Of a stretch of DNA of 64,000 bases, positions 52,102 through 52,977 are shown piece after piece (the stretch's first letter is position 1; every line of letters starts with the position of its first letter). The notes under the pieces are model-generated. The model was not told where the DNA came from and made no database searches. It saw only the letters and a program-made list of their open reading frames with translations. The DNA is from an uncultured Planctomycetota bacterium (GTDB taxonomy: Bacteria > Planctomycetota > Phycisphaerae > SM23-33). Location of the stretch: the NCBI GenBank assembly GCA_903892515.1, contig CAITIS010000057.1:49627-113626 (forward strand), given 5' to 3'. A program made the translations under genes and the position numbers.

Positions 52102-52977
52102 ATGCCCCGACGAGCCGCCATCAAGGCCGTCGTCTTCGACCTGGATGACACGCTCTATATCGAGCGGCAGTACGTCCTGAGCGGGTATCGCGCAGTGGGC
52201 GAGTTCTTGCGGACGCAAGGGCCGGGGCGTCTTTCACCGTCGCCTTCACAGCCGGGGGCGGCTGTGCCACGGATACTCTCACACCCGGCTACGGCTGTGC
52301 CACGAGAACAAGCGGCGTCGCGCCAAGTAGGGTCCGCAGGGTCCGCAGGTTCCGCGAGTACACTCGCGGGTTCTGCGGACGGGGAACGGTCCCCACGGGA
52401 AAACGATTACGCCACGTGGATGTGGCGGCGATTCCTCGCCGGTCGGCGCCAGGCCATGTTCGACGCCATGAACGAGCACTTCTCCCTGGGCCTGTCGCAA
52501 GCGGACGTGCAGAAGCTGGTGAAGGTCTATCGCGAGCACGTTCCAACCATCCGGCCATTGTCGGACGTGAAACCGCTGCTCAAACGCTTGCGCCGCGCCG
52601 GCCTGAAGCTCGGCCTGCTCACCGACGGCTACCTGCCGGCGCAACGACTGAAGTGGGCCGCACTGGAGCTGGGTGATTTCTTCGACGAGCGGGCGGTGGT
52701 CTTCACCGAAGAACTTGGCCGGGCGTTCTGGAAGCCTTCGCCGCGCGGCTTTCGCCTGATCCGCCACGCCTTGGGCGTGGGCCACGAGGAATGCGTCTAC
52801 GTCGCCGACAATCCAGCCAAGGATTTCCTCGCCCCCAACAAGCTCGGCTGGCTGAGCGTGCAATGGCTCCGCCGCGGCCAGGTCCATTCGCACAATCCCG
52901 CCCCGGAGGGCGGCCAACCGCAAGCCACAGTCCACTCCGCGAACGAGTTACTGGACGCACTCGCCCCGCGGTCGTAG
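52102..52977 (+). CDS. HAD-superfamily hydrolase with a ~60-aa repeat-derived insertion
   Basis: Motif I VFDLDDTLY, motif II LLTDG, motif III WKPS, motif IV YVADNPAKD. Confidence 0.9.
   Translation: MPRRAAIKAVVFDLDDTLYIERQYVLSGYRAVGEFLRTQGPGRLSPSPSQPGAAVPRILSHPATAVPREQAASRQVGSAGSAGSASTLAGSADGERSPRENDYATWMWRRFLAGRRQAMFDAMNEHFSLGLSQADVQKLVKVYREHVPTIRPLSDVKPLLKRLRRAGLKLGLLTDGYLPAQRLKWAALELGDFFDERAVVFTEELGRAFWKPSPRGFRLIRHALGVGHEECVYVADNPAKDFLAPNKLGWLSVQWLRRGQVHSHNPAPEGGQPQATVHSANELLDALAPRS

Follow-up and report, generated by a model that had tools for sequence, protein, structure and literature searches.

The locus described here raises the question of how a long, low-complexity segment came to lie within a small enzyme, and whether that segment was contributed by non-coding repeats. 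The gene is located in a window of 64 kb (the whole stretch of DNA that was analysed, to which all coordinates refer) from a Phycisphaerae-like planctomycete MAG. It is the last member of an epimerase / epimerase / PylC-like ATP-grasp / HAD cluster in which the epimerases are NAD-dependent, and its ATG lies 2 nt 3' of the ATP-grasp stop codon. The gene and the part of it that is of concern are as follows.

52102..52977, + strand: HAD-superfamily hydrolase gene of the C1-cap type, encoding 291 aa, with the frame open throughout in the ORF list.
52213..52395, + strand: loop-coding stretch for T38-P98, containing the 171-nt insertion along with some 12 nt of native loop.

The assignment to the HAD superfamily is supported by Pfam (PF00702, 74 bits against a cutoff of 26.4, E = 2.8e-20; PF13419 was also matched). 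All of the HAD motifs are present, namely D13xD15xT17, T174, K211 and D236/D241, and, as the first-pass annotation had reported, they are intact within a frame that is open from 52102 to 52977. The columns holding D13, D15, T17, K211, D236 and D241 are invariant across 68 orthologs, and the motif II residue T174 is replaced by Ser in most of them. Among the 78 columns that are conserved at the level of at least 90%, 77 are kept in the window protein, which is a single departure compared with an ortholog mean of 2.6. A search of 5.8 billion proteins found 1165 relatives, nearly all of them 225-245 aa in length, the best of which outside the gene's own 90% cluster was 64% identical. Since two of the loci that were fetched from other genomes (L180 and L178; all such L-numbers denote fetched loci, 1.2 Mb in total) likewise have the gene order epimerase, epimerase, ATP-grasp, HAD, the relatives are confirmed as orthologs.

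In the ortholog alignment, the interval between R37 and W106 comprises 68 aa in the window protein and 11 aa in 52 of the 68 sequences. By this comparison, the HAD cap loop carries an in-frame insertion of 57 aa (171 nt) relative to the orthologs. An insertion of ~60 aa had been proposed in the first-pass annotation; the insertion itself stands while its size is corrected to 57 aa, and with the 11-aa interval prevailing, the orthologs do not have the hairpin-free segment of similar length that had been named as the contrary outcome. The protein search, with nothing between the 64% identical relative and the 90% cluster of the gene itself, gave no empty-site or intermediate allele, as is expected when the closest ortholog is that distant. 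Since there is no close relative, the insertion is placed somewhere within 52213-52395. The same loop is expanded by 16-36 aa in four other orthologs, one of these expansions being a (GGAACCC)n heptamer array and another containing a hairpin with a 7-bp stem. Judged from the aligned sequences, the HAD cap loop is clearly permissive for expansions.

An AF2 model of the protein, built with the 68-sequence alignment (pTM 0.80; 215 residues with pLDDT ≥90), has in order a strand at 9-12, helices at 21-39 and 41-44, a coil, helices at 102-112, 119-126 and 133-145, and a strand at 169-173. The fold in this model is a Rossmannoid core with a four-helix C1 cap between motifs I and II, and a Foldseek search with the model gave HAD phosphatases and dehalogenases as the top matches (E = 1.8e-10 to 2e-9). 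The C1-cap phosphatases NANP/HDHD4 (PDB 2w4m) and PH1655 (PDB 2hoq) resemble it in the DxDxT, S/T, K and DD motifs, and in having a Rossmannoid core with a four-helix cap inserted after motif I, but their sequence identity with the window protein is only 18-20%. Residues 49-94 are the sole segment with pLDDT <50, and the insert is predicted to be disordered and to lie between cap helices 1 (21-39) and 2 (102-112). This agrees with the cap location that had been suspected at first, and with the loop disorder for which an AlphaFold check had been suggested. Of the 67 close orthologs in the alignment, the great majority have no such disordered loop of 57 aa at this place in the cap.

The DNA of the insert contains three palindromic elements, and these were found exactly where the first-pass annotation had placed them, at 52248-52270 and 52281-52303 on the minus strand and at 52327-52380, as borne out by the sequence, the repeat comparisons and the predicted folds. 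They belong to two families, REP-A and REP-F, and are listed together with the minor features that adjoin them and with a copy of a further family, REP-B, at the end of the gene.

52246..52273, - strand: REP-A copy 1 (core 52248-52270), GTGG-CACAGCCG-CCCC-CGGCTGTG, with a perfect 8-bp stem and a 4-nt loop.
52279..52306, - strand: REP-A copy 2, decayed (core 52281-52303), 33 nt downstream of copy 1 and in the same orientation.
52327..52380, + strand: REP-F-like element with a GTAGG tag and an outer stem GTCCGCAG/CTGCGGAC, 54 nt overall.
52329..52346, + strand: perfect 9-nt tandem duplication (AGGGTCCGC twice) within the REP-F-like element, encoding GSAGSA with the frame kept.
52381..52394, no strand assigned: small hairpin at the insert's 3' edge, GGGGA-ACGG-TCCCC, which appears in the RNA fold of that segment.
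52973..53002, + strand: REP-B copy CGTAGG-GCGTGCAAC-TT-GTTGCACGC, from a three-copy family in the window.

The two REP-A copies in the insert both carry the GTGG tag and are direct repeats that lie antisense to the gene. The core of copy 1, read on the minus strand, is GTGGCACAGCCGCCCCCGGCTGT; the gene reads it antisense as SQPGAAVPR, and as a DNA fold it has a stability of -9.9 kcal/mol (z = -4.5 compared with shuffles). Copy 2 is equal to copy 1 at 22 of 26 positions and differs at the remaining 4, retains 7 of the 8 stem pairs, is translated in the gene's frame as SHPATAVPR and folds at -7.6 kcal/mol (z = -2.9). The spacers that follow these two units are unrelated to one another, whereas the spacers of a tandem REP-A array elsewhere in the window (19844-19926) are conserved. 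The REP-F-like element has an outer stem of 8 bp and, separated from it by a GTT/GTT internal loop, an extra inner stem of 7 bp with a 4-nt loop (CCGCGAG-TACA-CTCGCGG). Its hairpin is imperfect, with 19-nt arms at 52341-52359 and 52362-52380 that are 84% complementary, and as DNA the element folds at -17.9 kcal/mol (z = -5.2 compared with shuffles). The small hairpin at 52381-52394 matched no repeat family in our searches and may be due to chance. An Rfam scan of the whole window returned one tRNA only, and the hairpins are thus not a curated RNA family.

The REP-A family is present in the window at two further places.

19844..19926, + strand: array of three REP-A units in tandem (period 30 nt), reading in frame within a Peptidase_S10 gene.
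59831..59858, - strand: intergenic REP-A copy (core 59833-59855), the closest relative of copy 1 in the window.

With up to 3 mismatches allowed, the REP-A core gave four more matches in the window (19844, 19874 and 19904 on the plus strand and 59833 on the minus strand) and 0 matches in 100 shuffles. Copy 1 is identical to the intergenic copy at 26 of 28 positions. The 64 kb therefore hold 6 REP-A units at 3 loci, of which only the one at 59833 is clearly intergenic, and by its sequence a second window protein, the Peptidase_S10, also carries REP-A in frame. Outside the insert, the REP-A tags are GTAG or GTGG. More generally, the window has 17 instances of a GT[AG]G tag leading directly into a perfect stem of 7 bp or more, compared with 2.4 +/- 1.2 in shuffles, and these instances fall into several stem families.

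Species-representative genomes were scanned with the pattern GT[AG]G[GC]ACAGCCGCCC[CT]CGGCTGT. Among the matches listed, over 116 loci from other genomes have the REP-A 23-mer without a mismatch, and these listed matches span at least about nine phyla. They include Planctomycetota, Acidobacteriota, Hydrogenedentota, Chloroflexota, Sumerlaeota and Verrucomicrobiota, and further Deltaproteobacteria, Desulfobacterales, Thermodesulfobacteriota, Nitrospirales and Armatimonadia. In these genomes REP-A shows no conserved flanking sequence. Many of the copies are paired as inverted doublets with a separation of 12-20 nt, and some are arrayed in direct orientation at a period of 30-31 nt (e.g. L033, L066 and L098). 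As far as sequence patterns go, such dispersal, doublets and arrays are the behaviour of REPs and REPINs. A literature search for the REP-A core sequence returned nothing relevant.

For REP-F, the pattern GTAGGGTCCGCAG-N(4-34)-CTGCGGAC matched 71 copies in 57 of the fetched loci, 52 of the copies having the 25-nt form GTAGGGTCCGCAG-TACN-CTGCGGAC. Nearly all of them come from Tepidisphaerales, Tepidisphaeraceae and Humisphaera MAGs, and they often form inverted doublets. The copy in the HAD gene is identical to the 25-nt REP-F in its tag, its 8-bp outer stem and its loop TAC. It is the only REP-F-like element in the 64-kb window, and its extended stem CAGNNNCCGCGAGTACACTCGCGGNNNCTG had 0 matches in the genome-contig and metagenome-contig collections. 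The extended two-tier stem marks it, on sequence grounds, as an atypical copy. The earlier attribution of the insertion to two REP families was nevertheless correct, REP-A being multi-copy in the window and the third element having the exact REP-F tag and 8-bp outer stem. REP-A and REP-F were never found together in the 1.2 Mb of fetched loci, and we therefore rejected the idea that the two constitute one composite mobile unit. A DNA alignment to the closest orthologs was also set aside as too divergent to be informative; in it, MAFFT misplaced the insert onto the conserved TACGTCCGCAGCGG (YVRSG) codons, which resemble the REP-F stem by chance.

The composition of the insert points in the same direction as the repeats. 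Its GC3 is 0.56 and that of the remaining gene 0.83 (binomial p = 1.4e-6), whereas its overall GC is higher (0.69 versus 0.65). Since GC3 drops despite the higher overall GC, the segment is without the codon-position signature of the host genes. This is the signature expected of recently captured, intergenic-type DNA that would have evolved as non-coding sequence. The encoded peptide is correspondingly simple, with Ser, Ala, Gly and Pro making up 38 of its 59 residues. CRISPR, intron and intein readings of the segment were dropped, given spacers of 7-10 nt, an insert of 171 nt, no matching motifs and a frame that is simply open. It is hardly credible that the segment is a native, lineage-specific expansion of the loop whose hairpins arose by slippage or chance and not from REPs. 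Such an origin could draw on the loop being indel-prone in several orthologs and on the 9-nt slippage duplication, but it would leave unexplained the exact 23-nt identity to a dispersed repeat family, for which 0 matches are expected by chance, as well as the anomalous GC3. It would also have to account for the 13-nt plus 8-nt match to REP-F, which takes in the tag, REP-F being a family with ~60 canonical copies of 25-27 nt in the whole collection against ~10 by our own chance estimate, concentrated moreover in Tepidisphaerales and Humisphaera MAGs.

REPs in other bacteria are mobilised via single-stranded DNA by REP-associated tyrosine (Y1/HUH) transposases, known as RAYTs. We searched for such genes by tblastn, seeded with an E. 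coli RAYT sequence, and verified the matches by Pfam and NCBIfam. The NCBIfam model for the REP-associated tyrosine transposase (NF047646, cutoff 80) was matched at ~180 bits in L160 (179.8) and L070, and genes with the Pfam Y1_Tnp domain were found in L138, L164, L005 and L028. Their positions relative to the repeats are as follows: in L160 only 25 nt separate the RAYT gene and a REP-F copy, in L138 the Y1_Tnp gene lies between REP-F copies, and in L005 a Y1 gene that scores just below the cutoff (78.8 bits) has REP-A doublets on both sides. Relatives of the latter gene, ~63-65% identical, adjoin REP-A in two deltaproteobacterial MAGs (L028 and L082). From these arrangements, REP-A and REP-F behave as RAYT-linked REPs in other genomes. 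With three tblastn queries, no RAYT gene was found in the 64-kb window.

Taken together, the insert is likely to be a tolerated, REP-derived insertion of at least three units, of transposase-mediated origin, in the DNA for the HAD cap loop. We propose that small, non-autonomous GTAG-tagged REPs lodged in the DNA encoding this surface loop, the units being two direct copies of REP-A, antisense to the gene, and one REP-F-like copy in the sense orientation. REP-A copy 2 would later have decayed and the 9-nt duplication would have arisen. The net gain of 171 nt with no in-frame stop would allow the gene to be read through, and the insert would be translated as a 57-residue, Ser/Ala/Gly/Pro-rich disordered loop between cap helices 1 and 2.

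Stepwise accretion of the units, as originally noticed, is plausible. More than one insertion event is suggested by the two unrelated stem families and by the difference between one perfect and one decayed REP-A unit, and likewise by the unrelated REP-A spacers and the 9-nt duplication within the third unit. It is possible, though we are inclined to doubt it, that a pre-assembled REP cluster instead entered the gene all at once, by copying or recombination. Clusters of different REP families with a MITE-like repeat do exist in the intergenic DNA of this genome, for example at 52973-53290 just downstream, tandem REP-A arrays exist both at 19844-19926 and in the fetched loci with direct arrays, and a length divisible by 3 is easier to obtain from one event than from three. 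A single transfer is, however, difficult to reconcile with REP-A units that differ in decay (perfect versus 4 changes) and have unrelated spacers unlike those of true tandem arrays. Furthermore, neither the composite nor its junctions have a second copy in the window, and the extended inner stem of the REP-F-like element is without a copy in the public collections searched.

The insertion allele is real. Four contigs, assembled independently from different samples and with different assemblers, carry the HAD gene with 100% nucleotide identity; the exact protein is on record for 7 contigs, and another sample has a variant that differs by a single substitution (R290W). The allele is therefore not an assembly artefact. 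In one further sample, whose contig is from ERZ1426834, the gene call (P0122) starts only at M119, giving 173 aa, although the ATP-grasp and HAD stop codons are as far apart as elsewhere. This call may reflect a disrupted allele, and it is the main hint that some HAD alleles may be broken.

The M119 start, with that unchanged distance, is also one of the observations that would be expected if the insertion had disabled the enzyme and the gene were now dead or dying, its frame open by chance in GC-rich DNA. Stop codons are absent from two of the insert's three sense frames, the only stop being the TAG of the GTAGG tag in the unused frame, so that the open frame counts for little and reading through would require little selection, and if the unameliorated GC3 indicates a recent event there would have been little time for visible decay. 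We nonetheless consider a pseudogene quite improbable. The 77 of 78 conserved columns and the full set of catalytic motifs are kept, better than in the average ortholog, the start 2 nt after the upstream stop means that operon coupling is retained, the gene is identical at the nucleotide level in the four assemblies and the exact protein is found on the 7 contigs, and the loop tolerates expansions of 16-36 aa in four other lineages. The tolerated insertion would leave activity in place: the loop is probably tolerated rather than useful, with the catalytic core unchanged.

A use for the loop can be imagined, since the insert lies 7 residues upstream of the conserved cap helix WMWRRF and could serve as a tether or a regulator of cap opening. 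The hairpins might alternatively act on the mRNA through pausing, processing or stability, and the insert RNA does fold somewhat better than shuffles (-90.3 kcal/mol, z = -2.05). The allele also appears to be fixed in all samples with DNA. We hold either form of co-option to be very unlikely, however, as no conservation extends past a single species, the insert resembles raw non-coding DNA in its composition, the orthologs function with an 11-aa loop, and unrelated, junk-like repeats are found at the same place in other lineages.

How does the proposed REP-derived insertion compare with earlier descriptions? Di Nocera, De Gregorio & Rocco 2013 (PMC3733652) sort REPs into GTAG- and CGTC-tagged superfamilies and describe the GTAG REPs as 20-40-bp units with the tag (sometimes GTGG), a stem of 6-13 bp and a short loop. 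In their account several GTAG REP families coexist in one genome, REPs are present in Planctomycetes, and genes coding for known enzymes contain GTAG REPs in frame, often in groups, with some genes having two inserts (PMC3733652). They document intragenic repeat clusters encoding 43-82 aa and give the PVC bacterium Opitutus terrae, with very many intragenic GTAG REPs, as the richest case, and they suggest that in-frame inserts may be neutral by virtue of being located in loops or linkers (PMC3733652). The elements described here correspond closely to this description. The terminal GTAG/GTRG tag is found in the REP-A units and, as GTAGG, in the REP-F-like element at 52327, and both REP-A copies and the REP-F-like element have a stem of 6-13 bp with a short loop. 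The REP-F-like element, at 54 nt, is longer than its canonical 25 nt. This likeness rests on the superfamily description and not on the numbered families GTAG-1 to GTAG-24. What sets this case apart from the earlier ones is that the repeats lie in a HAD cap loop of a Phycisphaerae-like planctomycete MAG, that a single insertion unites two different families, that one unit has the atypical extended two-tier stem, and that the gene takes its stop codon from a third REP. The HAD insert fits the documented picture of intragenic REPs in every respect tested. The phenomenon has thus already been described in other bacteria, and the planctomycete HAD case is a clean new example of it.

Two other systems invite comparison. 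The Rickettsia RPEs (Ogata et al. 2000, cited in PMC3733652) are in-frame palindromic repeats in functional, expressed ORFs, and the peptide segments they add are described as sitting on protein surfaces (PMC3733652). The likeness is functional only, that of an in-frame palindromic insertion. RPE-1 is described as consisting of longer single elements of a different sequence family, and RPE-4 and RPE-6 as carrying the CGTC tag (PMC3733652); their host is an obligate intracellular alphaproteobacterium, whereas the elements here are planctomycete and GTAG-tagged. The REPIN-RAYT systems (Bertels & Rainey 2011, PMC3116915) have GTAG-tagged REP units, as here, and elsewhere REP-A and REP-F resemble REPINs in forming inverted doublets and flanking RAYT genes. 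A REPIN is, however, an inverted REP pair folding into one long hairpin. Within the HAD insert the REP-A units are direct, REP-A copy 2 and the REP-F-like unit are head-to-head and their stems are unrelated, and since the units are not an inverted pair, the insert is not a strict REPIN. A further difference is that REPIN populations have been described as lineage-specific and vertically inherited, whereas REP-A is identical across at least about nine phyla among the matches listed.

The REP that supplies the stop codon is the REP-B copy, the HAD stop (52975-52977) being the TAG inside its GTAG tag; the other two REP-B copies (26633-26662 and 28053-28082) are both intergenic. A broader view would be that REPs in this planctomycete lineage are a systematic source of new translated sequence and that a REP, once landed in loop-coding DNA, attracts more REPs, whether of its own family or of others. 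Since the periods of 30 and 33 nt are multiples of three and the antisense frames have no stops, a growing cluster could then persist as a disordered segment of the protein. The insert in the HAD cap, the linker of the Peptidase_S10 and the HAD stop codon supplied by REP-B would be three snapshots of one ongoing process and no isolated accident. We regard this generalisation as unlikely.

The case extends intragenic REPs to Phycisphaerae-type Planctomycetota and combines two families at one site; the general understanding of REPs and of HAD enzymes is unchanged by it. For annotation, it is a caution that a long loop of low complexity in a MAG protein can stem from a repeat insertion and need not be an error. 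It also offers a natural experiment in the conversion of mobile non-coding DNA into protein sequence, in which the donor families are identifiable and the composition betrays the non-coding origin. The recipient enzyme is small and amenable to assay, many of its orthologs are free of the insert, and the same loop has been independently expanded by other kinds of repeat in other lineages. The insert itself encodes candidate tryptic peptides, ILSHPATAVPR and QVGSAGSAGSASTLAGSADGER.

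When contigs of species-representative genomes were scanned, the 23-nt hairpin repeat with a GTGG/GTAG tag, REP-A, was found letter-identical in MAGs from about nine phyla among the matches listed (L001-L116), namely Planctomycetota, Acidobacteriota, Desulfobacterota/'Delta', Hydrogenedentota, Chloroflexota, Nitrospirales, Sumerlaeota, Verrucomicrobiota and Armatimonadia. Since REPs are described as lineage-specific, this breadth is unusual, and it suggests that REP-A may have spread horizontally along with a transposase. In the doublets among these matches, the partner stem is often different while the CCCTCGG/CCGAGGG centre is unchanged. 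Y1-transposase genes of one distinct clade were found flanked by REP-A at three of the loci fetched from other genomes:

L005:683-1195, Y1-transposase gene, REP-A-flanked
L028:1040-1561, Y1-transposase gene, REP-A-flanked
L082:238-716, Y1-transposase gene, REP-A-flanked, frameshifted

This clade carries the motifs YRRNLPH, MPDHVHL, WQDESFDH and NPxRKGLV, scores 78.8 bits against the REP-associated tyrosine transposase family NCBIfam NF047646 (below the cutoff of 80), and is ~65% identical when a planctomycete MAG is compared with a deltaproteobacterial one.

REP-A is also found within a second coding sequence of the window:

18388-20058, minus strand, secreted Peptidase_S10 homolog with a signal peptide followed by REP-A repeats
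19844-19926, REP-A tandem array of three units with a period of 30 nt, inside the Peptidase_S10 homolog gene

The units are read in frame as TAEGGCPTNS x3 and lie between the signal peptide and the catalytic domain, which begins at about residue 116. As judged from its sequence, the homolog is a second REP-decorated protein within the window.

The 3' end of the HAD gene is overlapped by a copy of the separate three-copy family REP-B:

52973-53002, REP-B copy, CGTAGGGCGTGCAACTTGTTGCACGC

The TAG of its GTAG tag doubles as the HAD stop codon (52975-52977). The remaining two copies (26633 and 28053) are intergenic, 38-113 nt 3' of genes. In sample ERZ1426834 the HAD gene call starts only at M119 (173 aa), although the stop codons of the ATP-grasp and HAD genes are 878 nt apart, as in the window. 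The M119 start could mean that the allele carries a nonsense mutation or is disrupted in some other way, or that the assembly is ambiguous in the repeats.

Other repeats were also present in the window:

53008-53118 and 53179-53289, 111-nt element, two copies, 96% identical, 12-nt inverted ends GGGTGCCATAGG...CCTATGGCACCC
30519-30614 and 41480-41637, inverted doublets of a further REP family, GTGG-CATGGTCACGC
41398-41465, 46976-47029, 29125-29185 and 47067-47127, intergenic heptamer tandem arrays (GGGAATC and variants)

The 111-nt element looks like a MITE; assembly L117 breaks at this pair (53008-53289). The inverted doublets are REPIN-like. A heptamer array, (GGAACCC)n, occupies the identical HAD cap loop in the ortholog P0058 from another organism (L179:953-990).

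Upstream of the HAD gene lies the first epimerase:

48539-49915, first epimerase, longest ORF 458 aa, Pfam domain beginning at residue 134

It is called as 325 aa in other assemblies, compared with 458 aa for the longest ORF, and the N-terminal extension of the latter is probably spurious.
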